DNA from: a virus
Lineage: Duplodnaviria; Caudoviricetes
Virus record (IMG/VR): IMGVR_UViG_2899275550_000002
Span: 1,930 to 65,929 of that record
Reading direction: 5' to 3' (one strand)
DNA length: 64,000 nt
Shown here in pieces: positions 36,561 to 54,033 of this stretch; position 1 is the first letter of the stretch, and every line of letters starts with the position of its first letter. Below the pieces are notes generated by a model. The model was not told the origin of the DNA. It worked only from the letters and a program-made list of their open reading frames with translations, and searched no databases. A program made the translations under genes and the position numbers.

Positions 36561-36576
36561 GAGAGAGGAAAAGACC

Positions 36577-37068
36577 ATGGCGACCAAGATCACCTTCATG
36601 ACCAACCAGCAGGCGCATCACCTGGAGGTCGCAAAGCAGCTGACCGGATCGGATGGGTTCATGTCCGACGCCCGCGCCATCGCAGCCTATCTGCCGGGCG
36701 ACACCGGCATGGACCTGCTGGCCGTGGCCGTGTTCGAGTGTTTCCGGGGTGGCCGTGCCGAGCTGCACCTTGGCTGCGCGCCGGGCAAGCGCCTGACGCC
36801 GGAGATCATCACCACCGTCAGCACGCTTGCCTTCCATCCCAAGTTCTTCGGGGTGGACACGCTGGTCTGCCGGGTTCCGACGCAGAACGTGAACGCGATC
36901 TGCACGCTCCTGAAGATCGGTTTCGAGGTCGAATACCGTGACCGCTCTAGCGTTGTCGGCGGCGGGGATGGTATCGTGCTGTCACTGTCCAAAGAGACGG
37001 TATTGGCCTCTGCCGGGCCTGTCGATGAAGATTACCGGGCCCAGATGGCACCGGTCGAACAGGAGTAA
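36577..37068 (+). CDS. GNAT-fold protein (T7 gp13/DUF2824-like)
   Basis: AELH, NVNAICTLLKIGFEVE; position before the ejection proteins. Confidence 0.7.
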   Translation: MATKITFMTNQQAHHLEVAKQLTGSDGFMSDARAIAAYLPGDTGMDLLAVAVFECFRGGRAELHLGCAPGKRLTPEIITTVSTLAFHPKFFGVDTLVCRVPTQNVNAICTLLKIGFEVEYRDRSSVVGGGDGIVLSLSKETVLASAGPVDEDYRAQMAPVEQE

Positions 37069-37073
37069 GGCAG

Positions 37074-38009
37074 ATGGGCGGCGGTGGCGCACCGAAAGCA
37101 GACCCCAATATCGGTATCGCGGCCCTCAAAAGCGCGGAAATCGGTGAGAAATACCTTGGCTGGATGCAGGAGCAGGCCAAGGTCACGAATGAATGGGCAG
37201 CGGAGGACCGCGCCCGGTGGTCGGACACGTTCAAGCCCCTGCAGGACAGCTATATCGCGGACGCGAAGGCATGGGACACGCCCGGCCGCCGCCAGTCGGC
37301 ATCCCGCGAGGCCATCGCAGATGTGCGCCTGCAAGGGCGCGTTGCGGATGGATCGCGGACCCGGCAAGCGATGGCGATGGGGATAAACCCGAACAGCGGA
37401 CGGTTCCTTGCTAGCCAGCGCGACGGCGCGAATGACATGGCACTGGCGGCGGTCGGCGCCGGGAACATGGCCCGCGACCGGATCGAGGCCCAGGGCGAAC
37501 AGAAGATGGCGAACGCGATCAATCTGGGTTCCGGGTTGGGCGTGAACCCTGCGACCAGCATGGGGCTATCCAACAGTGCCATCAGCGCGGGCGCGAACGG
37601 CGCGATGAGCGGATATGGTCAGCAGGGCCAAATGCTGAACACGCAATTCCAGCAGCAAATGCAGGGCTATCAGGCCAAGCAGGCAAATATCGGGGCCATG
37701 TTCGGCGCAGCAGGATCGGTGGCGGGCATGATGCTGTCTTCCAAGGACGCCAAGACCAACAAGAAGCCGGTCAAGGACGGCATGGGCATCGAGGCCGTGC
37801 GCAAGATGCCGGTCGAGGAATGGGACTACAAGCCGGGCATGGGCGACGGCGGCCACCATGTCGGGGCCTATGCCGAGGACTTCCAGAAGGCCACCGGCAA
37901 GGGCGACGGCAAGACCATCGACATTGCGTCCTACCTGGGCACGCTCACCAAGGCCGTGCAGGATCTGGACAACCGGATGCGCGGCAAGGGCGGGAGGGCG
38001 GCAGCATGA
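37074..38009 (+). CDS. Ejection/internal virion protein with C-terminal peptidase-S74-like domain
   Basis: Gly/Ala/Gln/Met-rich body; SSKDAK...WDYK...HVGAYAED...LTKAVQDL. Confidence 0.7.
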   Translation: MGGGGAPKADPNIGIAALKSAEIGEKYLGWMQEQAKVTNEWAAEDRARWSDTFKPLQDSYIADAKAWDTPGRRQSASREAIADVRLQGRVADGSRTRQAMAMGINPNSGRFLASQRDGANDMALAAVGAGNMARDRIEAQGEQKMANAINLGSGLGVNPATSMGLSNSAISAGANGAMSGYGQQGQMLNTQFQQQMQGYQAKQANIGAMFGAAGSVAGMMLSSKDAKTNKKPVKDGMGIEAVRKMPVEEWDYKPGMGDGGHHVGAYAEDFQKATGKGDGKTIDIASYLGTLTKAVQDLDNRMRGKGGRAAA

Positions 38010-38773
38010 GCCTCGCCAATTCCATCGGCAGCTTCGCGCAGGGTTTTGCAAACGGGGCAACCGCCAAAAAGGACCGGGCCGAGCGCGCCGCCGTCATGGC
38101 GCAGAACGACAGACTGATCGACATGATGGGCCAGCAGATGCAGAGAGGCGGCGCGCAGGGCGGATTCGGTGCCATGCCGCCCGCTGGCGGTCTGGGCTAT
38201 GGCGGGGCGGCCCCGGCCAATGACGGCGCACCCCCGGCCACCGGATCAGCCGGCGCATCTGCAGGCGACTTCAAGCCCGGCCAGACGATCGACCTGTGGT
38301 CCCTCATGGATAAGCACGAGGGCGCAGGGGATTACGATACCTTGTTCGGGCACAGCCAGCGCGACGGCCAGTTCAAGGGCACGCGCATCAGCAACATGAC
38401 CATCGGTCAGGCCATCGACTTCGCCAACCCCCGCGGCGCCTATGGGCAGTGGGTGGCGGGCAAGAACGGCGGGACCGTGGCAACCCCGATGGGCCGTCAC
38501 CAGATCGTCGGCAGCACCTTGAAGCGGGCGGCTGAACAGATGGGGCTGGACCCCTCGACGCCGTTTAACCGTGACACGCAAGACGCCGTTGCCCGGCACC
38601 TGGCCGCCAACCGGCTGCGCGGGGCATCATCGCCCGAGGCCGCCCGCGCGGCGATCCGTTCCGAATGGGTGGGGTTCCGCAAGGTGCCCGACGCCCAACT
38701 TGACCAGGCCATCAGCGGCTTTCGAGAGCAATACATGGGCGGTGGCGTCGGCGCCCGGCCCCCGGTTTCGTAA
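38006..38773 (+). CDS. Ejection protein with lysozyme-like domain
   Basis: HEGAGDYDTLFG, GRHQIVGSTL, FNRDTQD, EWVGF. Confidence 0.75.
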   Translation: MSLANSIGSFAQGFANGATAKKDRAERAAVMAQNDRLIDMMGQQMQRGGAQGGFGAMPPAGGLGYGGAAPANDGAPPATGSAGASAGDFKPGQTIDLWSLMDKHEGAGDYDTLFGHSQRDGQFKGTRISNMTIGQAIDFANPRGAYGQWVAGKNGGTVATPMGRHQIVGSTLKRAAEQMGLDPSTPFNRDTQDAVARHLAANRLRGASSPEAARAAIRSEWVGFRKVPDAQLDQAISGFREQYMGGGVGARPPVS

Positions 38774-38784
38774 AGGAGGCCCCG

Positions 38785-40665
38785 ATGAGCTTGGGTAATG
38801 GATTCGCCAGCTTCGTGAACGGCTTTGTCGGCGGGCGCGACACGCGCGACCGCTGGGAGGATCGCAAGGACAGCAAAGAGCGGCAGAAGGTGCTGGACGA
38901 ATATGAGGCCGAGCGTCAGAAGCGCTTGGGCGACATGCACGGCTGGGCGGGCGAACAGCACCAGTGGGCGGGGCAGACGCACCGGTCGCAGATGACCGAT
39001 GCGCAGCAGCGCCAGCGCCTTGCAGACTTGGGCTGGGAGGACACGCAGGCCACCCGGGCCGCGCTGGCCGAGGCCGACGCCGCGGCCTTCGGCGGGATGG
39101 GCGGCGGGATGGGGGCAACCCCGCCCCCGGCGAACCAGCCCGGCCCGATCCAGACCGCAGCGATATCAACGCAAGGCTCGCCCCCCACGCAGGGCGGGAC
39201 GCCGCAGCTGGGCTATGGGGCCGCAGCCGAGGGCATCCCCCGCCCGGCCATGCCGCTGCGCGATCCGGCCACGCAGCCGCAATACAGCCATGGTACCGCC
39301 GCCCCCGTGGTTGCGCCGCAGCGCGCCGCACAGGAGGGCATGGGGGCTGCGCCCGAGGCCGAGGCCGATCCCCTGCTGGTCGAGAACCCCGATGGCACGT
39401 TCACGCCCCTGCGCGGTCCGCGCGATGCCACCGAGCAGATGGCACTGGCCGAGGCCGCCAAGGCTGGCCGCCTCAAGCAGGGCGATGCGTCCGCAGATCG
39501 TCAGGCGCAGGTCGATGCCGCTGGTATGTCCCGGGCGACCGAGAACCCCGTGGCCCGCGCGCTCCGCCTCGATGAAGGCAATGAGCTGGGCGGCGATGGC
39601 ATGGCGACCCGCAACGTCGCGCAGGCCGGAAAGCACCTGAACCGCACGGCAGTGAAGGCTTATGATGCGGTGGGCAATCAGGCGGTGCGCGGCGGCGAGA
39701 CGATCGCGGCGGGCGTCAACGCCATCAGCAGGTGGATGACCGGCGAGGATGCGGTGAGTGCCCCGGAGCGGTTCGACACGCTCAACCGCAATGCCCCCGC
39801 CTTCCCCGACGCGCCTGCGACGGTGCCGAAGGATGCCGACGAGGGCCAGGCCGCAGCGGCGACCGGCGCGGAATCGGCACTAGAGGCCGCCACCAGCACG
39901 CCCGCCGGAGCCGCGGCGATAGAGGCCATGCCGTCCCTGGGCGTCAAGCCGGGCCAGCCCATGACGCCCGCGCAGATCGACCGCGCCGCGCAGACTCACA
40001 TGCAGAGCTATCGCGACAACGGCCTGCCCATCATCACGCGCGAGCTGATGCGCCAGGGCAAGTTCGCGGAGGCCGAGACGCTGCGGACCTTCGTGAACGA
40101 TGCCGCCGCGCAGGACGGGATGAAAGCATGGTCGGGCGCGGTGTTTGCGGCTCTGTCGGGCGACGTGGACACCGCCGCCGCGCGCATGATCGACGCCTAT
40201 AACAGCAGCGGCTATTTCGATGATGGATTCGAGATCGTCAAAGACAAGACGGACCTGATCCGCGACGACGATGGCACGGTCATGGGCCTGCGGCTGACGC
40301 GGCGCAACCAGTCCACAGGTGAGGAAACGACCGAGGAAGGCACCATTGGCGACGTGATCGAGCGTGGCCTGTGGCTGCTGTCGCCCGAGCAGGCGGCGCA
40401 GCAGTATATGGCCCAGCAGCAGGCCATTGCAGTGCGCCTGGCCGAGATGGACGCCGAGCGGCGCGAGCTGGGTGGCGACATTATCAAGGAGCAGGCCAAG
40501 CAGGCGGATGCTAACGCCCTCAAGCTCATCGAGTTGACCGCTGATAGCCTTGGTCAGCCGACGATGACCCTGGAGGAAGCGCGGGCGGCCATAGCGGGCC
40601 AGGGCGCGCCGGAAGAAGGCTCGGCAGAGGACGATGTGCCGATGCTGCGCCGCCCCGAACGGTGA
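38785..40665 (+). CDS. Ejection/internal virion protein
   Basis: 626 aa, GFASFVNGF N-terminus like the preceding gene, Ala/Gln-rich. Confidence 0.75.
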   Translation: MSLGNGFASFVNGFVGGRDTRDRWEDRKDSKERQKVLDEYEAERQKRLGDMHGWAGEQHQWAGQTHRSQMTDAQQRQRLADLGWEDTQATRAALAEADAAAFGGMGGGMGATPPPANQPGPIQTAAISTQGSPPTQGGTPQLGYGAAAEGIPRPAMPLRDPATQPQYSHGTAAPVVAPQRAAQEGMGAAPEAEADPLLVENPDGTFTPLRGPRDATEQMALAEAAKAGRLKQGDASADRQAQVDAAGMSRATENPVARALRLDEGNELGGDGMATRNVAQAGKHLNRTAVKAYDAVGNQAVRGGETIAAGVNAISRWMTGEDAVSAPERFDTLNRNAPAFPDAPATVPKDADEGQAAAATGAESALEAATSTPAGAAAIEAMPSLGVKPGQPMTPAQIDRAAQTHMQSYRDNGLPIITRELMRQGKFAEAETLRTFVNDAAAQDGMKAWSGAVFAALSGDVDTAAARMIDAYNSSGYFDDGFEIVKDKTDLIRDDDGTVMGLRLTRRNQSTGEETTEEGTIGDVIERGLWLLSPEQAAQQYMAQQQAIAVRLAEMDAERRELGGDIIKEQAKQADANALKLIELTADSLGQPTMTLEEARAAIAGQGAPEEGSAEDDVPMLRRPER

Positions 40666-40714: not shown

Positions 40715-40763
40715 CATAGGACATGGGCTCGCTGATCCACACCCTCGGAGAAGCCCCATGTCC
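40715..40763 (+). promoter_or_regulatory. DarB leader RNA switch
   Basis: CAT-AGGAC-ATG hairpin; GGACATGGG (40719-40727) is complementary to CCCATGTCC (40755-40763), which covers the ATG. Confidence 0.7.
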
Positions 40764-43700
40764 GGCAATACGCCCGCTGCCCGCGCAATTGCGCAGATCG
40801 ACGCCCTCTATGGTGCGCAGACCGCCCCCCAATCTACCGACATCAAGGCGATTTCGCGCAAGACGCGCGTGCCGGTCAATGTGCTGGTGGCGCTGGACGA
40901 GGGCCGCGGCGATCTGAAGGCGGTCGAGGCTCATGCCACCCGGATCGCGCAGGCGGTCGAGGCGGGCAAGCCGATCGAGGATGCCATCTATGAGGTTGCG
41001 GGCGACGAGGGGCGCGGGCGGGCTATCCTGGACACCGCCTATGATCTGGCAGACCGGATGGAGCCCCCTGCCCCCGCCGCCGCCGACAGCGGCAATGATG
41101 GGCGCGTGGGTATCGCGGAAGGCGTGGCCGGGATCGCGCGGGATTTCGGATCGGGGATGCTGCGCGCGGGCGGTGGTGCGCTGGAAGCGGCCGGCGTGGT
41201 GGCCGACGAGGCCGTACGCGGCGCGTTCAGCGATGATCCGTCCCAGGCAACGCCCCTGCGCGGAGCAGGCCGGGCGGCGGGCGACGTGGCGCGCGGCGCG
41301 GGCGAAGGCATCGCGGCGGGGCGCAGCGAGGATTACCAGCGTGTGCGCGAGGGCACGCAGCCGGGCGGCAGTCTGGCGGACCCGTCCAGTTGGTCCCTTG
41401 GCGACGATCCGTCAATGCTGGGCCTTGCGGGCCTGACTGCCGAGGGTCTGGGTTCCATGGCCCCCGTGGTGGCCGCTGGCGTCCTGACCAAGAGCCCGGC
41501 GCTGGCCGGTTCGATCGTCGGCGGCCTGATGGGCGGCGGCGAGGGCGTCGAGACGGGCCGCCAGTTCGTCCAGGACGCGGCCAAGACCCTGGATGAGAAC
41601 GGGCGCCCGGTCATCGAGGGACTGCCGGAATACCAGAAGTTGCGCGAGGCGGGCACCAGCCACGACCGCGCCGTGGCCGATCTGACGCGCCGGGCCGAGA
41701 ACGAGGCCGGGTTCCGGCAGGGCATGGTGGCGGGCCTGGGCGGCGCTGCGACCAACCGCATCCTGATGGGCGCTGACGGCTGGCTTGGGCGCGGCGGGCG
41801 GCTGGCGCGCGCTGGCAAGAAGGGCGCGGCGTCGGCGCTGGAGGAGGGCGCGCAGGAAACCGCAGAGGGCGTGGCCGGGGGCCTGGGCATCGAGGCGGCC
41901 ACCGGGGCCAATGTCGACCTGATGGAGGACAGCTTCGGTGATTTCGTCGCGGGCTCGCTGGCCGGTGGCGCAATGGGCGCAGGCGCGGGCGCATTGGGGC
42001 GCGGAACGGATCGACCGGACCCGCAGCCCGACACCCCGCCTGCCCCGCCCGAGCGGCTGGCCCTGCCCGCGCCCGAGAACGGCGGCACGATCTTTGGCCG
42101 CCCACCTTCCGCCGACATCAACCCGGCGATGCCCTTGGGCCTGCCGTCTCCCACCAACGGCGGAACCATTATCCCCCCGGCACCGGCCCCGCGCCAGCCG
42201 GGCGAGCCAGAGCCGATCACGGTTCGGCAGACCCCCGATTTAGCCGGGCCGTCTCCTGACGCGCCCGCACCCTTGGTCCCGGCTGGCGGCAGCAGCCTGG
42301 ATCAGACCGCCGCGCCTACCCTTTCCTCCTCCCTCGGGGCGGGCGCGGCGGTTCCTGATGCCGGAATGGGTATCATGCCCGTTCCCCCGGTTGCCCCGCC
42401 TGCCGGGCCAGTCGAAGCGATCGCACAGAGCCTTGCGGCGTCGATTCCGGCGCCGGTGGCCGAACCCGCCCCCCGGTTCCCCGATCAGAAGCCGGGCGCT
42501 ACGGTCCTGCTGGGAAGCCCGGAAGGCGCGAACGAGAATGCGGTGTTCCTGCGCGAGACGCCCGAGGGCGCGCTGGTGCGGATTCAGGGCCAGGAGGTCG
42601 AGCTGACGCCCGAGGCGTTCGACGCGGCCCGCAATCAGGCCGAGGTGAACCAGAACCGCGAGGAAACCCCGCGGGGCGATCTGGGCGGCAACTCGGTGGC
42701 GGCATCGGTCGGCGCCAAGAAGCGCACCCCCATTGCCCTGTCGGTCGAGGAAGAATTTGCCCGGCTGAACCCGGAGCAGGCCCGCAAGCGCCTCGACGGG
42801 CTGACGGCACAAGCCAAGCAGCGCGGCTGGGATGCCCGCCGCCGGAACCTGCGCACCATCCTGGAGGGGCGCATTGCACTCGGAGGACCGGCCAATGTGG
42901 AACCCACAAGCGCAGAAGATGGGCCCGAGGGCGGGCCTGCCCCCGCTGGGGTGGATGATGTGCGCGCGGACAGCGGCGAAGGAGCTGCAGCGCGCGGGGT
43001 TCCTGACCAGGAAGGAGCGCAAGCGCCTGGTGGCATGGATCGAGAACCCGGAGAGGGAGCAACCCGACCCGAGCCTGACGGCGGTGCTGTGGGCGGTCTG
43101 GATGTGGCAGGCGACACCGGGAAGCTGGGCGGTTCACTGACCGCAGCCCGCGCGGCCGGGCTGATCACGCACACCACCAAGAAGGGCAAGGCCAAGACCG
43201 GCTATGTGCTGCAAGGCGTGACCAAGGCCGAGGCCGACGCGATCGACCCCTATTCGTTCAAGAAGGACGGCGGCGTGTTCGTAAACGCCGAGCGGGCCGA
43301 TGCGTTCGCGCCTGCTGAAAACGCAGCCAAATCCAACCCGGAGGTTCTCACAGTTGGTGTAGACAAACAGAAGCCCCCCCGTGTAAAAAGGGACACGCGG
43401 GAGGCCTCGAATGACAACGCACCGAATGTCGAAAACGGTCGAGTACGGAACCTGGCAACGGATGAAAGCCAGATGCCTACGGCCGACGCACAAGGATTAT
43501 CCGACATACGGAGGGGCGGGGATAACGATAGCCCCGGAATGGGTGGACGACTTTCCGGCCTTCCTAGCGGAGGTCGGGCTGAAGCCGAGCCCAATCCACT
43601 CGATCGACCGGATCAAGCCGGAACTGGGCTATCGTCCAGGCAACGTTCGATGGGCGACGCCTCAGCAGCAAGCGGAGAACAGGCCGGGGTTCGTCAAAGA

Positions 43701-46700
43701 CTTGGCGGGCAAAACGGCGATGGAAACAGCCAAAGCGGCGGGGATCGTTCCATCGACCCTGTATCGCAGGCTGGCAGTCGGGATGCCGATGGAGAAGGTG
43801 TTGAGCAACCAGCGCCTTCCAACCGGTCCATATCGGAGGATGCTGACCCACAACGGCGAGTCGCTTCCGCTGAAGGTATGGGCGCGGAAGGTGGGGTTGA
43901 AGCCAACGACACTTCGCGAGAGGCTACGGCGCGGCTGGACGGTCAATCAGGCACTGACGACGCGGGTGTAACAGCCCCCGCCGCTGCCCCACCCCCGACC
44001 GGCGTGGCCGCGGCACTGTCCGACGCCGACCAGGCGCGCATGGCAGAGCTGAAGAATAAGCTGGCCGACCGGCTGCGGAACCAGGCCAACAGCGGCCTCG
44101 ATCCCGAATTGCTGGGCATGGCCGTCGAGCTGACCGGCCTCTATGTGAAAGGCGGCATCCGCAAGTTCGGCGCCATGCTGCGCGATTTCATGGCCGACAC
44201 AGGCCTGACGGCGCGCGAATCCCAACGCTACATGCGCGCGGCCTACAATGACGTGCGCGACAATGCCGATCTGAACGGCGAGGACGTGAGCGCGTTCGAC
44301 ACCGCCGATCAGGTCATGGCCGAAGTCCGCGCCGCGCTGGCCGAGCCCGAGACGGCACCTGTCGAAACAGCCACATCGCAAGAATCGCCCGAAGGTGATA
44401 GCATCGGGCAGGACACTCAACCGGAGGGCGCGCCCGATGATCGAAACAGCACTGATGAAGGCGATGGTCGAGCAAGCCCCGACCGAGGCCCGCAAGATCC
44501 AGAAACGCGGCCCGAACGCGCTGAAGGATCACGTCAGCGCCGTGGTCGAGCGGACGCGGGCCAATCTGGACCCGAACCCGACGCAGGACGATCCGGCGGG
44601 CGACGTGATGATGCGCGAGATGGTGATGGCCGAAGCGATGGCCGAGCTGTCGATGGGCAACGACTAGAGCCAGGCCGAAACCACGTTATCCCCGAGGGCG
44701 GCCTTGCCCTAAAAGGCGGCGACAAGACCCGCGCCCGTGCTGCCGTGAAGGCCATCGAGATCGTGCGCGATCTGGAGCGCGAGGGGCGGCCTGCCACCTA
44801 TAATGAACGTCAGCAGCTCGCCCAATACGGCGGTGCGGGCGTCCTCGCCCCTGCCCTGCCCAACAGCGCGGGCAAGATCAGGATGGAGGACATCGCCGCC
44901 GATCTGGACCACCTGCTGACGCCCGAGGAACGGGCGACCATCGAAAAGACCAGCCAATATGCCTTCTATACGGCTGAACCCGTCCTGCGGAATATGTGGG
45001 CGCTGGCGCAGCGCCTTGGCTTCACCGGCGGCCAGGTGTTCGAGCCCGGTATGGGTGTGGGCGGTTTCGCGGGTACCATGCCCAAGAGCGTGTTCGGCCA
45101 GTATTCCGGCATCGAGCTGGATCATGTCACGGCCAAGATCGCCGCGGCGCTTTACCCGCAGTCGCACATCAAGCACGGCGATTTCATCCAGACCCCCATG
45201 CCGCGGGACTTCTACGACCTAGTGATCGGCAACCCGCCCTTCTCGCAGACCAAGATCACCGCCGACCCCGCCTATCCGCAGGGGTTCATGATCCACGACT
45301 ATTTCTTCGCCAAGAGCCTCGACAGCGTGCGGCCGGGCGGCCTGCTGATGTTCGTGACCAGCGCCGGCACGATGAACAAGCGCAACACCAAGGCCCGCGA
45401 CTATCTGGCCGACCGGGCCGACTTGGTGGGCGCGGTCCGCCTGCCCAACACCGCCTTTGCGGAGAACGGCACGCAGGTCACGACCGACATCATCGTGCTG
45501 CGCAAGCGTCTGGAGGGCGAGGCCGAGGCCAACCCGGCATGGCGCGAATCCACGCTGGTCACATACCCGGATGGCAAGGGTGGCACGGTCGATCTGGCCG
45601 TGAACCGCTATTTCCAGGAGAACCCCGAGATGATCCTTGGGGAGCAGGGTGCATTCGACACGCTGGTCGGCGCCCCCCGGATCGGCGTGCGCCCGCGCGA
45701 GGGTGCGAACCTGGCGCGCGACCTGCGCACCGCCTTGGAGAGCTTTCCCGAGCGCATCATGTCGGCCCCGTCTGCCCTGCAGATGATGGACGGCCCCCGC
45801 GATGCCACCAGCGCCGAGACGAAAACCGGCAGCTATTACCTGAAGGATGGCGAGCTGTGGCAGTTCGACGGACGCGAGGGCAAGCCGGTCCAGCGCAAGG
45901 GCAAGAGCGGCGGCGGGATGACCAAGGGGGATTACGAGCTGATTACCCAGCTGGTGCCCATCAGGAACGCCCTGCGCGCCGTCTATACCGCCGATCTGGC
46001 CGAGACGGATGCCACCGCCGCCCGAGCGGAGCTGAACCGCCTCTATGACGCCTTCGTGGAAAAGAACGGCCCCCTGAACAAGGTCGAGGAAAGCTATCGC
46101 CGCCCGTCCGCTGTTGAGCTGGAAGGGCTGCGCCAGCGTGCGGCCGAGGACGCGCGGTCTGCCGGGCTGGATTTCGACACCGGCAGCTTCGATGCCGGGC
46201 CGCTGATCGAGGCAGAGGCCAGCATGGCCGCCATCGCCCGCGCGCGGCGCGAGGCCTCCCATGAGCCGGGATACCGGGAAGGCACGTTCAACCCCGATGC
46301 CGTGCCCGACAAGGTGATCGAGAAGTTCCCGAACATGGACCCCTTCCGGGGCGATCCCGAATCCTTCCGGCTGCGCGCCATCGAGAAGTTCGACCGGGCA
46401 ACCGGCCAGGCCCGCAAGACCCGCGTGTTCACCGAGAACGCGGTGAAGAAGGCCACCGCGCCCAAGATTAATTCCCCCGAGGATGCACTCCTGCACCAGC
46501 TGGCCGATACCGGGCGGATCGACATCGACCGGATCGCGGAGGCATCGGGATCGACGCCTGAGCGCGTCCGCGCCGAGTTGAAGGGCAAGGTGTTCGAGAA
46601 CCCGGCCACGGGCGAGATGGAGACGCGGACCCGCTACCTTTCGGGCAATGTGCGGCGCAAGCTGGCCGAGGCGCAGGCCGCCATCGCACGCGACATCCGC

Positions 46701-49700
46701 TTTGCCGAGAACGTGGCCGAGTTGGAGAAGGTCATCCCCGACCCGATCCCGCGCAGCGGCATTGTCGTACCCCTGGGCGCGCATTGGTTCGATCATGGCC
46801 TCTATGCTGAGTTCGCCAAGTCGAAAGGGCTGACCCTCAAGGCCGAGTTCAAGCGCGCCCTGGGCCAGTGGATTGTCGATGGCGATAAGAGCAGCGCACC
46901 GGCCAAGAACGAATGGGGCACCGAGGACGTGCCGTTCGCGGAGATGATGCGCCGCGCCATGAACAACAAGCCCATGCGCGTGTCGCGGACGGTGAAGAAC
47001 GCGGATGGCAGCACCACGACCTTTGTGGACGAGGAAGCCACCCAGGCCGCCGCCGACAAGGCAGCCGAGCTGCGCACCGCCTTTGCCGACTGGCTGTGGT
47101 CCGACGAGGCCCGGGCCGAGATGCTGGAGGAACGCTATAACGAGGCGTTTAATGCCGAGGTGGCGCCCGTCTATGATGGTGCCTACCTGACCACGCCGGG
47201 TATCAACGCAGGCTGGACCTGGCGGCCCCACCAGACCGCTGTTGTCGCGCGCATCCTGCAGTCGGGCAGCACCTACATGGCCCATGCGGTCGGCGCCGGT
47301 AAAACCAGCGCCATGATCGGCGCAGGCATGGAGGCCCGCCGCCTCGGGCTGGCACAGCGCCCGTGGTATTCGGTCCCGAACCACATGCTTGTGCAGTTCG
47401 CCACCGAGTTCCAGGAGCAATACCCGCTGGCGAATATCCTGGTTGCGGACGAGAACAACTTCCAGGGCGACCGTCGCCGCCAGTTCGTCGCGGACGCGGC
47501 CAGCGGCGATTACGATGCCGTCATCATCACGCACAGCGCGTTCGAGCTGATCCCGTCCAGCCCCGCCGCCAAGGCCGCTGTGGTCGAGGGGATGCTTGCC
47601 GACCTGCGCGAGCTGATCCAGGACCAGAGCGACAACCCACGCGATCGAGTGCCCGGCCAGGATCAGGCCACCCTGGGCGCGCTGAAATCCGTCGCTGCGG
47701 CCTTGGGCATCAAGGAAGGCAAGAAGGACGCAGGCGATAAGGTCAGCACCGCCAAGAAGATCGCGCAGATGATGGAGCAGGCCGAACAGCGCCTGACCGC
47801 CATGACGCAGGACACCGGCAAGGACGAGGTGTTCACCTTCGATGAGATCGGCGTCGACATGCTGTTCGTGGACGAGGCCCATCTGTTCCGCAAGCTGTCC
47901 TTCGCCACGACCAACGGCAGCATCAAAGGCATCGACCCCAAGGGGTCCAGCATGTCGATGGACCTCTACATCAAATCTCGATCGGTGGACCGGCGCAATC
48001 CGGGCCGCGGGCTGGTGTTCGCCTCGGGAACGCCGATCACCAACACCATGGCCGAGCTGTTCAGCCTGCAGCGTTTCATGCAGCCGCAGGCGTTGGACGA
48101 GCGCAACATCAGCGCCTTCGATGCCTGGGCGGCAACCTTTGGCGAGGTGGCGAGTGAATTGGAGCAGACCCCGGATGGGGGCTACAAGGAGGTCAGCCGG
48201 TTCAGCAAGTTCGTGAACACGCCCGAGCTGTCGTTGATGGTGCGGCAGGTCATGGACATCGTGACCAGCGCCGACCTTGAGAAATACGTCACCCGCCCGC
48301 AGCTGCGCGGCGGCGGGCGCAACCTGGTCGTGATCGAGTCCAGCCCGGAGCAGAAGGCGTTCCAGCGCGACCTGGCCGCTCGCATGAGGGCCATGCAGCA
48401 GCGCAAGGGCAAGCCGAAGCCCGGCGATGACATCATGCTGAACGTGGTGAACGATGGCCGCCTGGCTGCGATCGACATGCGGCTTGTGGACCCCACCGCC
48501 AGCGGCGAGGGCTCGAAGCTTGAGCGGATGATCCAGAATGTCTATCAGGGCTGGAAGGCCGGGGCCGATGCGCCCCTGCATGGCGTGAAGCCGGAAGGCG
48601 GCTATACCGCCAAGCCGGTGATGCGCGGCGCCACCACGCAGATCATCTTTTCCACGCTTGGCGTGAACCCCTCGAAGCACAATCCGAGCTTTTCGGTGCA
48701 TCGCCATATCAAGGCATCACTGATCCGCATGGGCGTGCCCGAGAGCGACATCATCATGGCGGGCGACCTGAAATCGCACCTGGCCAAGCAGCGCGCGTTC
48801 AACGACATGAACGAGGGCAAGCGCCGAATCCTGATCGGGTCCAAGTCGATCTTCACGGGCGTCAACGCGCAGCGCCGCCTGGCGCAAATCCACAACCTCG
48901 ACCCGCTATGGTTCCCCGCCGACGATGAGCAGCGCAACGGGCGCGGCATCCGGCAGGGGAACATGAACCCCGAGATCGCGATCAACGACTATTCGACCAA
49001 AGGCACCTATGACGCGACCATGTGGCAGATGATGGGCCGCAAGGCCGCATTCATCGAGGGCTTCTATCGCGGCGACCCGACCATGCGGGACATGGAGGAT
49101 CTGGGCGAGGCCAGCGCGTTCGAGCAGGCCAAGGCCATGACCACGAGCGACCCGCGCATCCTGCAGCTGACCGAGCTGAAAACCGAGCGCGACAAGCTGC
49201 GCCGCCGGGCGGGGGCCGTGGATACGCAGCGATCCAAGCTGCGCGCGCAGATCAGGTCGGCCATGCGCGGAATCGAGTTCAACCGCGACGAGGCGCGCAA
49301 AGTCGAACCCATCACGGGGGTGATCCCCGATCTTTCGGGCGACAAGTTCAAGATGCGCGTCGGCGCCACCGAGTTCGACAGCCGCAAGGAGGCTGGCGAG
49401 GCGATCATGGCGCGCGTCGAGGCGCTGGCCGAGGCTGGCAAGTCGGTGAGCGAGATTGTCGTCGGCAACATCGGCGGGTTCCCCGTCGAGGCTGACTGGT
49501 CGGAGCTCATGAAAAGCGCCCGCGTGGGCGTCCGTCACAGCCCGGTCATGGACCTGGCCGATGCCGAGTTCAGCGACGATCCCGTGGGCCTTGTCCGCAA
49601 GCTGGAACACGCCCTGAAGAAGCCGGAACGCTATCTGGAGTTCTATCAGGCCGAGGGGGCCAAGGCCGAGCGCCAGGCCGCCGCGCTGCGCGCCCAGCTG

Positions 49701-52700
49701 GAGGGCGTGAAGGAGTTTGCCGACCAGGCTAAGCTGGATGGCCTGGAAACCGAGATTGACACGCTGCAGGCGGCGCTGGTCGCGGATGCGGCGGCGGCCG
49801 AGGCCGAAGGCAATCAGGACGGACAGGTGGATGCCCCGCAGGAGTCCCGCTTCACAGCCGAGCCGGTTGTGAGCCTCACGGGCGACGAGCTGGGGGATTG
49901 GTCGGATATGCGCGACCTAGGCATGAAAGCCGAGGCTTGGTATCGGGAGAACCTTGTCGGCACGACCGTCACGATGGGCCAAACAGGCTGGAAGGTGCAG
50001 TTTGGCCGCGTGGGCTCGAAGAAGTTGGGCGGCCGGAAAGGTGATTTCCTGCTGCGGGCCGTGCCAGCCCTCGCGGCAATGATCGAGCAAGGAACGCTCG
50101 TTTCGAGCCAAGGCGACAGGAAGCGCGGCAACGAACGTCTGAAGTTCCATACCGTCCGGGCGCGTGTCTCGGTCGGCGGAGAGACGCATAATCTGTTCAT
50201 CACCATCCGAGAGGACGGTAATGGCCACTATCACTATGATCTGTCGATGGAGAACGGTGCCGAGGTCAGAAATTCAGGCGCGGCTGGTCGGGTAACTGAA
50301 GCCCGGAGCGGCGGTCTGAACGACCTCGGCACAATCAACATGGAGATCGCGGACAACTCTGTCAACGGCGCTGATCCTGAAATGACCCCTGCTTTTGCGC
50401 GTGCGATCAACGCTGCGGCCCGCGCGGAGCTGGAGAAGATCGGGATTGCCGGTCGTGTCCGGGCCGAGGCCGGGGGCGAGGGCCGCGCGGCTGGCACCTA
50501 TCAGCGCGGCGTCATCCGCATCCTTCGCACCCGCGCAGGCAAGTGGCGGCACACGCTCGATCACGAGATACTGCACGCTCTGCGCGACCCCGAGGCCTGG
50601 AGCGGCGAGGCGGGCCTGTTCACCCGGGCGGAATGGAGCGCCCTGGCGCGGGCGGCGCGGGCCGACAAGGCCGTGCGCGAGCGCGTCGAGGCGGCCTATC
50701 CTGATCTGACCGAGGCCGGGCGCACCGAGGAGATGGTGGCGGAGTTCTATGCCGATTGGGCACAGGGCAACCGTGAGGCCCCTGCCGGGCCGATGGCAAA
50801 TGCCCTGGGCCGCATCCGATCCTTCTTCAATGCCGTGGCGTCCGCGCTGCGCGGCGAGGGGTTCCAGGACGCGGCCACGATCATGCGGCGGATCGCCGGG
50901 GGCGAGGTCGGCGGGCGCGGGCCGGATGGGCCCGGTACCGGGCGCGGCGCGGCGCGCGAGCAGCGTAACATGGATGGCCTGACCAGTGCCCTGCGCGAGG
51001 GTGCCGCCCGGACCCGGAAACGGAGCGGGGTGGCCGCCCGCGCGCTGTTCAGCCGCGAGGCATGGAGCAATTCGCCCGAGGTGTTCAGCAATTTCCTGAC
51101 CGACGCCATGGGCCGCAACCAGCAGTTCAACCTGCTGGGCGCGGTGCCGGGCTATTCCCTGTTCAAGGAGCTGGGCAAGAACCTGTCGGCGGCCCAGACC
51201 TATCTGGGGCTCAAGCAGTCGATGGATGCCGAACGCAACGACTGGCAGGCCCGCGCCGCCGCAGCGGTGGACGAGTGGACCAAGATCGGCCGCAAGGACC
51301 AGGAGGCCAACACCCGCCTCATGGACCTGATGCACGAAAGCACGCTGGCTGGTATCGACCCGAGCAAGACCGACGACTGGCGGCACCCGCACCTGGACAG
51401 CGCGCGGCGCATCGACCGCGCCGATGTTGCCAGCCCCGAGGATCGCGCCTTTGCCGCCCGCGTGGCGCAGGAGATCGCGGACCATGAGGCAACCTATGAC
51501 CGCCTCAAGCGGCAGTTCGACGCGCTGCCGGCCGATTTCCAGTCCCTCTATGGCAAGGTCCGCGACGAATACGCGACTATGGCCGACGCGACCGATCAGG
51601 CCGTGCTGGACAACGTGAAGGTGGCGAACGAGCTGGCACTGAAGCGTGCCCAGAAGAAGCACAAGGACGAGATGCAGCGCATCAAGGACGAGGGGCTGAC
51701 CGGGGCTGCGCGCGACGAGGCCGTCGACCAGGCCGACCGTCGCCTGGCCGCCACCCAGAAGCGGGCGCGGGACAACGGCGCGGCCAGGATGGCAAGTCTG
51801 CGCGCAGCCTTCGAGACGAACCGCCTCAAGGGCCCGTATTTCCCGCTCGCTCGCTTCGGCAGCTATTTCGTCTCCGTGCGGGATGCCGATGGCGCTGTCA
51901 TTTCGTTCAGCCGGTTCGAGAAGAAAGCCCAGCAGGAGGACGAGGTGGCCCGCGCCGAAAAAGAGGGCGCGGCGGAAGGCTGGACCGTCACCCGTGGCGT
52001 CCTGGGCGGCGATGCCGACCTGAAAGGCATGGTGGACCCGCGCTTTGTGAGCGAGGTCGAGGGCATTCTGTCGGAATCGGACGCCAGCCCGGAGACGATG
52101 GACGCGATCTGGCAGCATTGGCTGGAGAGCCTGCCTGACCTGTCGGTGCGCAAGAGCCGGATCCACCGCAAGGGCCGGTCAGGATTCAACAAGGATGCGG
52201 TGCGGGCCTTTTCGTCGGCGATGTTCCACGGCGCGCACAACCTGGCGCGGCTGCGGTATGGCCTGCGCATGGATGATGCCCTGAACGAGGCCGAGGCGCA
52301 GGCCGGGCGTCAGGCTGATCCCGAGCGGGCCGGGTTCGTGGTGCGTGAGATGCGCCAGCGGCACAATTTCACCATGAAGCCGACGAACAACCCGTTGGTG
52401 ACGGCGGGCACGTCGCTCGCCTTCGTCTGGTATCTGGGCATGTCGCCTGCCTCTGCGCTGGTCAACATCAGCCAGACCACCATCTTCGGCGTGCCGATCC
52501 TGCGCACAGCCTTCCCCAAGGCGGGCGTGACGGGAGCCACAAAAGCCCTGGGCAAGGCCGCCGCTGATTTCGGGCGCGGCAAGGGCTGGACCGAGCGCAG
52601 CAAGAACCTGACCGAGGATGAGCGGGCCGCGATCCAGGAAGGCTATCGCCGGGGCACGATCGACAAGACGCAGGCGCATGATCTGGCCGCCGTCGCGGAG

Positions 52701-53942
52701 TCGGGCGTAGCCTACAACCCGACCCGCGAGAAGGTGATGCGGACCATCGGGTTCATGTTCCACCATGCCGAGCGCCTGAACCGTGAGGTGACGTTCCTGG
52801 CAGCCTACCGGCTGGCGCGGGCGGATGGTCGCGATCATGATGCCTCGATCAACGATGCCGCCGACCTGACCTGGCGCACGCATTTCGATTACCAGAACAC
52901 CGCGCGCCCGCGGATGATGCAGGGGGATTTCGAGAAGATCATCTTCACCTTCCGCAATTTCACGGTGAACGCGCTGTATCGCCTATTCCGCGACACGCAC
53001 CAAGCGTTCGCGGGCGCCACGGCAGAGGAACGGCGCGAGGCACGCGGCCAGCTGGTCGGCGTCAGCCTGTCGATGATGGCCCATGCCGGGATCAAGGGCG
53101 TCTGGGGCTATGGCCTGTTGATGGCCCTGCTGGGCGCGGTGATGCCGGGCGGCGATGGCGACGACATCGAGGACTGGATTCAGGACGCGCTTCTGATGGA
53201 GGGCGATGATCTGGGCACGGCCGCATGGAATTGGGCGATGGGCATGGTCCTGCACGGCGTTCCCGGAACGGTCACAGGTACCAGCCTGACGGAACGGCTT
53301 GGGATGCCAAACCTGTGGTTCCGCCCCCCTCGCGAGGGCACCGAAGGCCAGGACGTTTGGGCGCACTACCTGGAGCAGTTTGCGGGGCCTGTCGTGGGTA
53401 TCGGCGGGCAGTTCATGTCGGGCCTGTCGATGATCGGGGATGCCTGGTCGGAAGGGAACGGCGACAACCTGATGCGCGGCGCTGAGAAGCTGGTGCCCAA
53501 TTTCGTGAGCAACGGCGTCATCAAGCCCGCCCGGTTCATGACCTATGGAGCGAACAGCTATTATGGCGATCCGCTGATGGAGGTTGGGCCCCTCGATGCG
53601 GTGCGTACCGCCATGGGGTTCACGCCTGCCGAGCTGGCCGAGCGGTATCAGATCAACGCGCGCCTCAAGGCCCGCGAGCGGGAGATTACGGGCCGCCGCG
53701 CCCGCATCCACCGGCTGATCGGAAAGGCCATGCAGGATGGGGGCGAGATCCCGGCGCGCGTCATGCGCGACATGCAGGAGTTCAACCGCGAGTTCCCCGA
53801 ATACCCGATCACCCGCGACACGATCCGGCAGTCGATCCGCAGCCGAGCGCGGGCGAAGGAGCGCAACGAATTCGGCGTGACGCTTAACAGCAAGCTGAAT
53901 GACCGCCTGCGCGGCGAGATGCCCACGCCGGTCTATAACTGA
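40758..53942 (+). CDS. Giant DarB-like polyvalent protein (N6-MTase + SNF2 helicase + metallopeptidase + PLxRFG domain)
   Basis: FEPGMGVG and GNPPF (about 45040-45245), HAVGAGKT (about 47283), DEAH (about 47871), HEILH (about 50562), PLARFG (about 51843). Confidence 0.92.
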   Translation: MSGNTPAARAIAQIDALYGAQTAPQSTDIKAISRKTRVPVNVLVALDEGRGDLKAVEAHATRIAQAVEAGKPIEDAIYEVAGDEGRGRAILDTAYDLADRMEPPAPAAADSGNDGRVGIAEGVAGIARDFGSGMLRAGGGALEAAGVVADEAVRGAFSDDPSQATPLRGAGRAAGDVARGAGEGIAAGRSEDYQRVREGTQPGGSLADPSSWSLGDDPSMLGLAGLTAEGLGSMAPVVAAGVLTKSPALAGSIVGGLMGGGEGVETGRQFVQDAAKTLDENGRPVIEGLPEYQKLREAGTSHDRAVADLTRRAENEAGFRQGMVAGLGGAATNRILMGADGWLGRGGRLARAGKKGAASALEEGAQETAEGVAGGLGIEAATGANVDLMEDSFGDFVAGSLAGGAMGAGAGALGRGTDRPDPQPDTPPAPPERLALPAPENGGTIFGRPPSADINPAMPLGLPSPTNGGTIIPPAPAPRQPGEPEPITVRQTPDLAGPSPDAPAPLVPAGGSSLDQTAAPTLSSSLGAGAAVPDAGMGIMPVPPVAPPAGPVEAIAQSLAASIPAPVAEPAPRFPDQKPGATVLLGSPEGANENAVFLRETPEGALVRIQGQEVELTPEAFDAARNQAEVNQNREETPRGDLGGNSVAASVGAKKRTPIALSVEEEFARLNPEQARKRLDGLTAQAKQRGWDARRRNLRTILEGRIALGGPANVEPTSAEDGPEGGPAPAGVDDVRADSGEGAAARGVPDQEGAQAPGGMDREPGEGATRPEPDGGAVGGLDVAGDTGKLGGSLTAARAAGLITHTTKKGKAKTGYVLQGVTKAEADAIDPYSFKKDGGVFVNAERADAFAPAENAAKSNPEVLTVGVDKQKPPRVKRDTREASNDNAPNVENGRVRNLATDESQMPTADAQGLSDIRRGGDNDSPGMGGRLSGLPSGGRAEAEPNPLDRPDQAGTGLSSRQRSMGDASAASGEQAGVRQRLGGQNGDGNSQSGGDRSIDPVSQAGSRDADGEGVEQPAPSNRSISEDADPQRRVASAEGMGAEGGVEANDTSREATARLDGQSGTDDAGVTAPAAAPPPTGVAAALSDADQARMAELKNKLADRLRNQANSGLDPELLGMAVELTGLYVKGGIRKFGAMLRDFMADTGLTARESQRYMRAAYNDVRDNADLNGEDVSAFDTADQVMAEVRAALAEPETAPVETATSQESPEGDSIGQDTQPEGAPDDRNSTDEGDGRASPDRGPQDPETRPERAEGSRQRRGRADAGQSGPEPDAGRSGGRRDDARDGDGRSDGRAVDGQRLEPGRNHVIPEGGLALKGGDKTRARAAVKAIEIVRDLEREGRPATYNERQQLAQYGGAGVLAPALPNSAGKIRMEDIAADLDHLLTPEERATIEKTSQYAFYTAEPVLRNMWALAQRLGFTGGQVFEPGMGVGGFAGTMPKSVFGQYSGIELDHVTAKIAAALYPQSHIKHGDFIQTPMPRDFYDLVIGNPPFSQTKITADPAYPQGFMIHDYFFAKSLDSVRPGGLLMFVTSAGTMNKRNTKARDYLADRADLVGAVRLPNTAFAENGTQVTTDIIVLRKRLEGEAEANPAWRESTLVTYPDGKGGTVDLAVNRYFQENPEMILGEQGAFDTLVGAPRIGVRPREGANLARDLRTALESFPERIMSAPSALQMMDGPRDATSAETKTGSYYLKDGELWQFDGREGKPVQRKGKSGGGMTKGDYELITQLVPIRNALRAVYTADLAETDATAARAELNRLYDAFVEKNGPLNKVEESYRRPSAVELEGLRQRAAEDARSAGLDFDTGSFDAGPLIEAEASMAAIARARREASHEPGYREGTFNPDAVPDKVIEKFPNMDPFRGDPESFRLRAIEKFDRATGQARKTRVFTENAVKKATAPKINSPEDALLHQLADTGRIDIDRIAEASGSTPERVRAELKGKVFENPATGEMETRTRYLSGNVRRKLAEAQAAIARDIRFAENVAELEKVIPDPIPRSGIVVPLGAHWFDHGLYAEFAKSKGLTLKAEFKRALGQWIVDGDKSSAPAKNEWGTEDVPFAEMMRRAMNNKPMRVSRTVKNADGSTTTFVDEEATQAAADKAAELRTAFADWLWSDEARAEMLEERYNEAFNAEVAPVYDGAYLTTPGINAGWTWRPHQTAVVARILQSGSTYMAHAVGAGKTSAMIGAGMEARRLGLAQRPWYSVPNHMLVQFATEFQEQYPLANILVADENNFQGDRRRQFVADAASGDYDAVIITHSAFELIPSSPAAKAAVVEGMLADLRELIQDQSDNPRDRVPGQDQATLGALKSVAAALGIKEGKKDAGDKVSTAKKIAQMMEQAEQRLTAMTQDTGKDEVFTFDEIGVDMLFVDEAHLFRKLSFATTNGSIKGIDPKGSSMSMDLYIKSRSVDRRNPGRGLVFASGTPITNTMAELFSLQRFMQPQALDERNISAFDAWAATFGEVASELEQTPDGGYKEVSRFSKFVNTPELSLMVRQVMDIVTSADLEKYVTRPQLRGGGRNLVVIESSPEQKAFQRDLAARMRAMQQRKGKPKPGDDIMLNVVNDGRLAAIDMRLVDPTASGEGSKLERMIQNVYQGWKAGADAPLHGVKPEGGYTAKPVMRGATTQIIFSTLGVNPSKHNPSFSVHRHIKASLIRMGVPESDIIMAGDLKSHLAKQRAFNDMNEGKRRILIGSKSIFTGVNAQRRLAQIHNLDPLWFPADDEQRNGRGIRQGNMNPEIAINDYSTKGTYDATMWQMMGRKAAFIEGFYRGDPTMRDMEDLGEASAFEQAKAMTTSDPRILQLTELKTERDKLRRRAGAVDTQRSKLRAQIRSAMRGIEFNRDEARKVEPITGVIPDLSGDKFKMRVGATEFDSRKEAGEAIMARVEALAEAGKSVSEIVVGNIGGFPVEADWSELMKSARVGVRHSPVMDLADAEFSDDPVGLVRKLEHALKKPERYLEFYQAEGAKAERQAAALRAQLEGVKEFADQAKLDGLETEIDTLQAALVADAAAAEAEGNQDGQVDAPQESRFTAEPVVSLTGDELGDWSDMRDLGMKAEAWYRENLVGTTVTMGQTGWKVQFGRVGSKKLGGRKGDFLLRAVPALAAMIEQGTLVSSQGDRKRGNERLKFHTVRARVSVGGETHNLFITIREDGNGHYHYDLSMENGAEVRNSGAAGRVTEARSGGLNDLGTINMEIADNSVNGADPEMTPAFARAINAAARAELEKIGIAGRVRAEAGGEGRAAGTYQRGVIRILRTRAGKWRHTLDHEILHALRDPEAWSGEAGLFTRAEWSALARAARADKAVRERVEAAYPDLTEAGRTEEMVAEFYADWAQGNREAPAGPMANALGRIRSFFNAVASALRGEGFQDAATIMRRIAGGEVGGRGPDGPGTGRGAAREQRNMDGLTSALREGAARTRKRSGVAARALFSREAWSNSPEVFSNFLTDAMGRNQQFNLLGAVPGYSLFKELGKNLSAAQTYLGLKQSMDAERNDWQARAAAAVDEWTKIGRKDQEANTRLMDLMHESTLAGIDPSKTDDWRHPHLDSARRIDRADVASPEDRAFAARVAQEIADHEATYDRLKRQFDALPADFQSLYGKVRDEYATMADATDQAVLDNVKVANELALKRAQKKHKDEMQRIKDEGLTGAARDEAVDQADRRLAATQKRARDNGAARMASLRAAFETNRLKGPYFPLARFGSYFVSVRDADGAVISFSRFEKKAQQEDEVARAEKEGAAEGWTVTRGVLGGDADLKGMVDPRFVSEVEGILSESDASPETMDAIWQHWLESLPDLSVRKSRIHRKGRSGFNKDAVRAFSSAMFHGAHNLARLRYGLRMDDALNEAEAQAGRQADPERAGFVVREMRQRHNFTMKPTNNPLVTAGTSLAFVWYLGMSPASALVNISQTTIFGVPILRTAFPKAGVTGATKALGKAAADFGRGKGWTERSKNLTEDERAAIQEGYRRGTIDKTQAHDLAAVAESGVAYNPTREKVMRTIGFMFHHAERLNREVTFLAAYRLARADGRDHDASINDAADLTWRTHFDYQNTARPRMMQGDFEKIIFTFRNFTVNALYRLFRDTHQAFAGATAEERREARGQLVGVSLSMMAHAGIKGVWGYGLLMALLGAVMPGGDGDDIEDWIQDALLMEGDDLGTAAWNWAMGMVLHGVPGTVTGTSLTERLGMPNLWFRPPREGTEGQDVWAHYLEQFAGPVVGIGGQFMSGLSMIGDAWSEGNGDNLMRGAEKLVPNFVSNGVIKPARFMTYGANSYYGDPLMEVGPLDAVRTAMGFTPAELAERYQINARLKAREREITGRRARIHRLIGKAMQDGGEIPARVMRDMQEFNREFPEYPITRDTIRQSIRSRARAKERNEFGVTLNSKLNDRLRGEMPTPVYN
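42895..43140 (+). CDS. Small gene nested in the +1 frame of the DarB-like ORF
   Basis: GGAGG at 42882, 8 nt before ATG; 81-aa Trp-rich helical product; the DarB frame here reads as low-complexity linker. Confidence 0.5.
   Translation: MWNPQAQKMGPRAGLPPLGWMMCARTAAKELQRAGFLTRKERKRLVAWIENPEREQPDPSLTAVLWAVWMWQATPGSWAVH
43411..43971 (+). CDS. HNH homing endonuclease nested in the +1 frame of the DarB-like ORF
   Basis: YGTWQRMKARC, YGGAGITI, SIDRI...GYRPGNVRWAT...QAEN; two C-terminal HTH-like repeats; GGGAGG SD; lower GC. Confidence 0.88.
   Translation: MTTHRMSKTVEYGTWQRMKARCLRPTHKDYPTYGGAGITIAPEWVDDFPAFLAEVGLKPSPIHSIDRIKPELGYRPGNVRWATPQQQAENRPGFVKDLAGKTAMETAKAAGIVPSTLYRRLAVGMPMEKVLSNQRLPTGPYRRMLTHNGESLPLKVWARKVGLKPTTLRERLRRGWTVNQALTTRV
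44437..44667 (+). CDS. Small gene nested in the +1 frame of the DarB-like ORF
   Basis: GGAGGG at 44423, 8 nt before ATG; 76-aa helical product (MIETALMKAMVEQAP...). Confidence 0.55.
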   Translation: MIETALMKAMVEQAPTEARKIQKRGPNALKDHVSAVVERTRANLDPNPTQDDPAGDVMMREMVMAEAMAELSMGND

Positions 53943-53986
53943 CGCTGGCGCGACATGGGGGTGATCTGTTAGATTGCCCCCATCCG

Positions 53987-54033
53987 CTCGCACAGGACGT
54001 GACGAGGCCCCACCGATCAGGAGCCCCACGTCC
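53987..54033 (+). promoter_or_regulatory. Leader RNA switch of the second tail module
   Basis: CTCG-CAC-AGGAC-GTG-(A)-CGAG hairpin; GGACGTG (53995-54001) is complementary to CACGTCC (54027-54033). Confidence 0.75.

Follow-up and report, generated by a model that had tools for sequence, protein, structure and literature searches.

How can a complete homing endonuclease gene lie inside another protein-coding gene and leave its reading frame uninterrupted? The question is raised by a 64,000-nucleotide (nt) stretch of viral DNA, positions 1,930 to 65,929 of the IMG/VR record IMGVR_UViG_2899275550_000002, called the window below. On its plus strand, an open reading frame (ORF) of 13,185 nt, 40758..53942, encodes a polyvalent DarB-like virion protein of 4394 amino acids (aa), as judged from the ORF list and from domain and homology searches. 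A second ORF on the same strand, 43411..43971 (561 nt, 186 aa), lies entirely within the first, and its PHROG match, alignment and AlphaFold model point to an HNH homing endonuclease gene. The two start codons are 2653 nt apart, which leaves a remainder of 1 on division by 3 and places the HNH gene in the +1 frame of its host. This layout had been noticed in an original prediction, and both ORFs, their offset and the position of the GGGAGG Shine-Dalgarno (SD) motif, at 43399-43404 on the plus strand with a spacer of 6 nt to the HNH ATG, were confirmed. We consider it likely that the locus is a hidden HNH cassette, in which dual coding takes place without splicing in an inter-domain slot of the polyvalent gene.

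The small ORF has the features of a genuine gene. The profile phrog_3377, 'HNH endonuclease', matches it from end to end (E value 4e-47, residues 1-185 on positions 4-188 of the 196 in the profile), and further HNH and restriction endonuclease PHROGs rank below this match. A collection of 5.8 billion proteins yielded 123 homologues at E≤1e-10, and relatives were found in 783 cultured-phage records. Residues H63, N78 and N90 are invariant in a 13-member alignment, in a block of the form HS-DR...PGN-RWA...Q..N. In the AlphaFold (AF2) model, of mean predicted local distance difference test (pLDDT) 83, the N-terminal domain (residues 1-93) has the HNH restriction enzyme PacI as its best fold match in the PDB, with a Z score of 6.0, a root-mean-square deviation of 3.5 Å and 24% identity over 78 aligned residues; the C-terminus is modelled as two helix-turn-helix units resembling the DNA-binding domains of I-TevI and I-HmuI. 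We conclude that the ORF, complete and conserved, belongs to a large family of phage HNH proteins. The window's own protein is missing from the 5.8-billion collection, because gene callers retain only the long host ORF. A single HNH copy is present in the whole genome, and a contig search of genomes with the HNH gave one distant locus only (Brevundimonas, 40%), which was uninformative. As predicted, the gene sits in a patch of lower guanine-plus-cytosine (GC) content, 0.56-0.63 across 43300-43900 versus 0.66-0.75 in the flanks, which suggests a recent arrival of the cassette.

The absence of host-frame stops across the HNH gene was also borne out: there are none, the translation of 43110-44201 in the large frame is stop-free, and the frame keeps its register to the left and right of the gene. 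Because of the phase, a host codon begins with the third base of an HNH codon and continues with the first two bases of the following one, so that a stop requires an HNH codon ending in T ahead of AA, AG or GA. As stop formation depends on the HNH third base, host-frame stops can be removed by synonymous changes alone. None of the 38 HNH sites at risk carries a third-position T, versus 10% among the other codons. When synonymous codons were shuffled within the HNH gene, the host frame remained open in 3.3% of the trials, with a mean of 2.8 stops. By itself the window case is suggestive, being only moderately improbable, and it is the comparative recurrence that carries the argument.

The closest relatives of the window HNH are 75%, 53% and 50% identical to it, and a clade made of the window, L011, L012 and L014 genes is supported by a Shimodaira-Hasegawa-like approximate likelihood ratio (SH-aLRT) of 98. 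All four genes of the clade, found in three contexts, share this phase and are enclosed by open host frames. In L011 the host-phase frame is open over the entire 1546-nt contig, with a downstream domain that differs from that of the window; in L014 the HNH gene is within a 1852-aa, 5′-open ORF for an LPD38 polyvalent protein; in L012, and also in L013, no stop interrupts the frame between the first base of the contig and the end of the next called gene. The comparison was then widened to 160 further loci, taken from metagenome and viral contigs with similarity to the HNH as the sole criterion, among which 143 near-full-length homologues were counted. Six of the 143 are stop-free in the window's phase, compared to 0.55 expected from their own usage of third-position T, and all six sit inside longer ORFs. 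Domains were recognised in four of these ORFs, namely PolA plus an intein (L031), ddrB-ParB (L015), 2H-SAK plus InPase (L016) and PolA (L083). The other homologues have 1 to 43 stops in this phase, and the other sense phase was never stop-free among the homologues examined.

Two of the six loci are telling. L083 has a GC content of 39%, and its HNH gene (870-1499) lies in an open PolA-like frame (2-1774) with 0 stops versus about 12 expected; this host frame closes 275 nt past the HNH gene. It is the strongest single case for selection. In L031, the host is a PolA ORF (685-4494) with a Pfam Intein_splicing domain at host residues 792-1050, and an HNH relative (3242-3751) is encoded in the +1 frame across the middle of this intein, with 0 host-frame stops versus 5.6 expected. 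A pooled Fisher test on the embedded loci was discarded as circular, because the group was defined by having zero stops; the per-gene shuffles and the 6 versus 0.55 comparison were used instead. We conclude that the open host frame exceeds what chance would give, and that the layout appears to be selected.

What, then, does the host frame encode across the HNH gene? The read-through spans about 209 residues (43356..43984, plus strand), and was characterised by its composition, by modelling and by searches. When the window is compared with L011 over the same DNA, identity is 75% for the HNH frame and 44% for the host frame, a pattern that points to the nuclease as the conserved protein and to a host frame constrained mainly against stops. 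The hydrophobic content of the read-through is 12%, versus 24±3% in the same frame of the non-embedded homologues with GC≥0.55, and its grand average of hydropathy (GRAVY) is −1.07. The sole matches to the peptide are natural low-complexity linkers, rich in Gly, Asp, Arg and Ser, of other polyvalent proteins. A single-sequence AlphaFold model, which is weak evidence, predicts a read-through devoid of secondary structure (pLDDT 33-49), with helices and strands in the flanks. Two further candidate read-throughs, P0128 (216 aa) and P0136 (243 aa), were rejected, as they are ordinary domains containing hydrophobic residues and unrelated to the window linker.

These results bear on the view that chance or decay is at work, namely that the host frame is open by luck, that the polyvalent protein is impaired or becoming a pseudogene, and that nothing is adapted. 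Long alternative open frames are frequent in GC-rich DNA, as illustrated by a 1162-aa antisense ORF (45219..48707) in the polyvalent gene itself, the shuffling probability is 0.033 for the window gene alone, and the window lacks the InPase module carried by the closest allele. Against this, the host ORF is intact over 4394 codons and in register on both sides of the cassette, the same stop-free phase recurs in the four members of the clade and among the distant homologues, the 39% GC case included, and the hydrophobic content of the read-through falls about 3 standard deviations below that of the non-embedded homologues. We regard chance or decay as an unlikely account of the locus.

Where the cassette lies in the host protein is best seen by comparison with alleles that lack it. 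The closest allele found, on the Logan contig L176, is about 94% identical at the DNA level to window positions 42066-43315 and 43985-55936. Its identity of 93-99% over a small conserved domain (43098..43315, plus strand) stops at 43315, and resumes at 43985 with a second conserved domain (43985..44400, plus strand, AAALSxxDQARMAELK...). Between these flanks, the window has a segment of its own of 669 nt, or 223 codons (43316..43984, plus strand), versus 1026 nt, or 342 codons, in L176, where a longer linker, an InPase domain and a further stretch are encoded. Both lengths are multiples of 3, as the original prediction had anticipated for a comparison with an HNH-less allele. It had also counted the insert as about 200 extra linker residues, and this does not hold: the cassette occupies the place of the 342-codon InPase-containing module, in a slot whose content was different in each of the homologues examined. 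A short shared-linker motif, SNPExLTV, which precedes InPase in L176 and in the homologue G020, persists in the window just 5′ of the HNH leader (about 43331-43355, plus strand). Contigs of two metagenome relatives likewise lose their match at 43312-43315 and regain it at 43993-43995. Among 12 homologues with both flanking domains (P0126-P0137), the slot holds 215 to 931 aa with differing modules, InPase and others, and that of G020 contains a cytosine-methylase-like stretch. The slot is thus a hypervariable hot spot of module exchange, in which the cassette stands where L176 has its InPase module. Two side observations concern L176: its polyvalent gene is called as two overlapping ORFs (1-1083 and 1032-12242), and its alignment has a 1-nt gap near window position 42940 and a longer one near 42398, which may be a real frameshift or a Logan assembly error.

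The cassette is absent from L176, from G020 and G032, and from the metagenome relatives X3 and X8, and therefore has a disjunct distribution among related alleles. This matters for a second view, in which the nuclease is domesticated: the HNH protein would never have been a homing endonuclease, or would have ceased to be one, and would benefit the phage, for example by binding or nicking DNA when expressed together with the virion module, and the linker would serve as coding space. Its catalytic residues are intact, it is encoded within a late structural operon, and non-homing roles of phage HNH proteins are documented in the work of Arsenault, Gosselin and Gogarten (Genes 2025;16:178, PMC11855218). 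The sporadic distribution (the 94%-identical allele and same-genus homologues lack the cassette), the single genome copy, the presence of close relatives in unrelated host genes and the lower GC suggesting a recent arrival all speak the other way, being traits typical of selfish elements. Domestication seems to us quite improbable.

Phage group I introns often carry HNH genes, and the original prediction had kept an unrecognised intron as its alternative. A covariance-model scan of 42300-45000 with Rfam at E≤10 gave no intron, the only hits being small nucleolar RNA, long non-coding RNA and small RNA noise at E values of 0.8-8; no catalytic RNA core that would mark a group I or group II intron was thus detected at the ORF. 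Neither were splicing blocks found to flank the insert, and a Pfam search for intein families (Intein_splicing, Hint) detected none in the host protein, whereas it did pick up the intein of L031. Space is also short, as about 95 nt of the slot lie outside the SD motif and the ORF. Moreover, the similarity between the window and L011 is confined to these two, beginning at GGAGGCCTC and ending at TAAC with the stop codon, and 13 and 4 host codons separate the cassette from the flanking homology. Finally, selection for an open frame makes no sense if the segment is removed from the RNA, so splicing of the segment appears unlikely.

An advocate of a self-splicing intron, or of some other removal at the RNA level that would keep the read-through out of the mature protein, could invoke the common residence of HNH genes in phage group I introns, the stable hairpin in the HNH leader, and the fact that atypical introns can evade covariance models. 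The scan remained negative up to an E value of 10, however, and less than 100 nt are available beyond SD and ORF, none of them shared with the 75%-identical L011 copy; under splicing, keeping the host frame open would be pointless. The same no-intron conclusion was reached for a published homologous case, Pacc40 (PMC11855218). We judge RNA-level removal very unlikely.

Expression of the HNH protein was considered next. SD-like motifs stand at equal spacing before the start codon in the window (GGGAGG), L011 (AAGGAGG) and L014 (AAGGAG), and such a conserved arrangement supports independent initiation of the predicted HNH protein. Folding of the leader (43356-43425) gives −25.9 kcal/mol, with a z score of −3.56 and none of 200 shuffles as stable; in the predicted hairpin (43370-43408, plus strand), which lies in the low-GC leader, the HNH SD is paired with a C7 run. 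The equivalent leader regions of L011 and L014 fold no better than shuffles, and the hairpin is not conserved there. As a lead only, ribosomes translating the host frame may open the hairpin and couple HNH synthesis to host translation. A sigma-70 promoter scan of 43000-44300 found none; a promoter candidate read by hand in the leader, TAGACA-N18-TAAAAA, failed the scan criteria. The hairpin loop carries an A5G3 run right after the last HNH-frame stop (43384-43386). A +1 ribosomal frameshift at this A-run and rare AGG codon (43385-43392), where host codons AAA AGG directly follow that stop and a slip would enter the HNH frame, could fuse the 876 N-terminal residues of the host protein to the nuclease and give a cargo protein with a nuclease at its tip, but this is hardly credible, since the motif is absent from L011, L012 and L014, which keep an SD and a start codon of their own, the run is located in a hairpin loop and not upstream of a stimulatory structure, and the HNH family offers no precedent. 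At its other end, the cassette terminates with ...TAAC in both the window (43968-43972) and L011 (634-638); L014 ends with TGA and L012 with TAG, so the shared TAAC may be a coincidence.

The dual-coding cassette can now be described as we picture it. It would be a free-standing unit, made of a short leader with an SD, an ORF and a stop codon at the very end, lodged one base out of phase in the slot. Ribosomes translating the host gene would read straight across it, and the roughly 209 polar, unstructured residues produced would serve as a linker between two folded modules, neither RNA nor protein splicing being required. The linker-like sequence would come from the codons themselves, as G or C at the first position and a purine-rich second position yield Gly, Asp, Glu, Arg, Gln and Ala. 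The HNH protein would be made separately, by ribosomes that initiate internally and use the SD and ATG of the nuclease gene. The element probably spreads when HNH-less alleles are cut and then repaired by recombination in the conserved flanks, and in the present case this process would have placed the cassette where the InPase module stood. Compared to what was first proposed, the reading of splicing-free dual coding in a tolerant linker is strengthened by the comparative evidence (the lack of intron or intein signals, the same open phase in the clade and in other lineages, and the polar read-through), and what has to be given up, besides the count of extra residues, is its novelty as a strategy.

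Several points weigh against this reading. Concerning the nuclease, Pfam HNH models do not match the protein, Foldseek with the model finds nothing in the PDB at E≤0.001, and a fold match as modest as that to PacI, with its Z of 6, is not safe when taken alone; as a PDB profile search with the sequence also gave no meaningful match, the assignment is based on the PHROGs, the motif and a moderate fold match. Concerning the frame, an expectation of 3% for the window alone would accommodate a lucky insertion filtered by selection as well as an adapted design, and the tree outside the window clade lacks resolution, so that independent origins cannot be counted. Concerning its arrival, an empty-slot allele was sought among 22 homologous polyvalent proteins and none was found, so the comparison defines neither a simple insertion event nor its target site. 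Divergence from L176 does not rise along the identity profile toward the slot, so no co-conversion tract is visible, and the cassette may have come by ordinary module-swapping recombination and not by homing; the alleles at hand appear compatible with both. Concerning the assembly, low-coverage metagenome contigs from two sequencing runs, which may be the source sample, match exactly over 43262-43670 and 43399-43883 and span the left junction, which the contigs of run X1 cross with an exact match at 43262-43467, whereas the right junction (43884-43992) is covered by no independent contig, and none of the contigs from sequencing runs joins both flanks across the cassette. No sequencing run contained more than a quarter of the sequence words searched for, and no RNA run was listed among those containing the locus.

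A more ambitious version can be formulated, which we find doubtful. It would make of the window, L011, L012 and L014 genes a specialised 'frame-neutral' HNH lineage suited to disordered polyvalent linkers, with third positions tuned so that an insertion in phase would always be read as linker; homing would replace neighbouring modules, here InPase, and thereby drive domain shuffling in anti-defence cargo proteins, and the SD hairpin would couple the HNH to host translation.

The host gene and its surroundings were also characterised. A Pfam scan of the host protein detected LPD39 (E 7e-59), LPD3 (E 5e-25), N6_Mtase, Eco57I and SNF2/helicase-C, and its C-terminus is of the PLxRFG type, the Paracoccus relatives being named 'PLxRFG domain-containing protein'. 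The methylase-helicase core (1366 aa) is 42% identical, over 94% of its length, to the 'DarB-like antirestriction' proteins of Bcep22-group podophages (Bcep22, BcepMigl). With P1 DarB, the alignment is confined to the methylase segment (31% over about 200 aa, E 1e-19); 'DarB-like' is therefore to be taken as an annotation label, and orthology to P1 DarB proper does not seem implied. Upstream, a virion module spans 21457-40665 and includes the terminase large subunit (21457-23052), the portal (23973-26249), an internal virion protein (31328-32911) and a structural protein (38785-40665). Taken together, the polyvalent-type domains, the DarB-like homology and these virion genes indicate that the host protein is a virion cargo, and that the element encoding it is a Bcep22-like podophage or prophage of Paracoccus. 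A giant protein with LPD domains, a methylase and a helicase, encoded inside a virion module, corresponds to the polyvalent protein class (Iyer et al. 2017). An HNH relative was looked for in the DarB-like gene of Ralstonia phage Heva, and none was found. The antisense strand of the polyvalent gene carries the 1162-aa ORF mentioned above (45219-48707, minus strand), and that of the G020 homologue a 1836-aa ORF (L007, 6719-12229). Both are spurious long open frames typical of GC-rich DNA, and an open frame by itself proves little here.

Among known arrangements, some resemble the window locus only in part. In Bacillus subtilis, comS encodes a 46-aa regulatory peptide, with its own ribosome-binding site (RBS), in the +1 frame inside the giant multi-module gene srfA-B. 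It arose in place, and differs from the window gene in being neither mobile nor a horizontally acquired nuclease gene. Gibb and Edgell reportedly described in 2007 the HNH gene mobE within nrdA of Aeromonas phage Aeh1, with an RBS controlled by a hairpin and neither intron nor intein; mobE is said to divide nrdA into two ORFs that are translated separately (genes in pieces). A free-standing HNH gene inside a phage coding region is common to both, but in the window the host frame runs through the nuclease gene.

Inteins with an out-of-frame homing endonuclease come closer (bioRxiv 10.1101/2025.01.02.630785; for a cyanobacterial dnaX intein, bioRxiv 10.64898/2026.09.14.751524). There as here, the nuclease gene is overprinted on a stretch of the host frame that is obliged to stay open, and L031 is an HNH example. 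Their read-through is removed by protein splicing, in contrast to the window, which has neither a splicing domain nor room for one.

The nearest parallels are the ShiLan domain and the Pacc40 gp60 insertion, described in mycobacteriophage methylases by Arsenault and colleagues (PMC11855218). Both conceal a complete HNH-type ORF out of frame in an unbroken methylase gene, show no sign of an intron or intein, give a disordered product when read in the host frame and have a disjunct distribution. The original prediction had presented the window as a different strategy, and in this it was anticipated by these hidden out-of-frame HNH genes. The Pacc40 gp60 nuclease is homologous to that of the window: the hidden ORF is 49% identical to the window nuclease domain over 85 aa (E 7e-22). 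Pacc40 shares with the window the unbroken host ORF around a complete, out-of-frame nuclease ORF, the lack of intron or intein signals and the disordered in-frame translation; the host gene combines a helicase and a DNA methylase, and the nuclease is PacI-like in both (PMC11855218, Fig. 5E). The differences are several. The Pacc40 ORF (L175, 7866..8345, with the gp60 start at 7102) is in +2 phase versus +1 in the window, so that both sense phases are used by this HNH family. It has an extra Cys-rich N-terminal part and lacks the two C-terminal helix-turn-helix modules of the window protein. Its authors found no RBS and asked how the hidden gene is translated, while the window has a canonical GGGAGG. 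Finally, the window host is a polyvalent virion protein of a proteobacterial phage, and in the closest allele a module takes the place of the cassette.

ShiLan shares with the window a length of about 200 codons that adds no stop to the host frame, and a disjunct presence among close alleles. Its ORF begins a few bases inside the insertion and stops within the last four, TAAC, an ending also seen in the window and L011; the two HNH genes being unrelated, the identity of these last four bases is given as an observation (PMC11855218). It differs in belonging to another HNH type, in which two zinc fingers accompany a central HNH, in using the third frame, in starting with a GTG that has no SD, and in sitting inside a conserved catalytic domain, where the window cassette is in an inter-domain linker.

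The window is thus a further example of a published hidden-HNH lifestyle and not a new principle. It extends this lifestyle from actinobacteriophage methylases to a Paracoccus podophage and to giant polyvalent DarB-like virion proteins. It also provides a codon rule for the phase concerned, no T at HNH third positions ahead of AA, AG or GA codons, and bears on the translation question asked in 2025, through a canonical SD before the start codon here and in the closest relatives. Because gene callers drop genes of this kind, protein databases systematically lack them and under-count the homing endonucleases nested in long ORFs; a stop-free alternative frame combined with a family match makes a usable detector. 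Compared to ShiLan and Pacc40, the new elements are the proteobacterial phage, the polyvalent virion host, the +1 phase with its codon rule, the canonical SD and the occupation of a module slot, to which we add a whole HNH clade whose members are all embedded, and in differing host genes.

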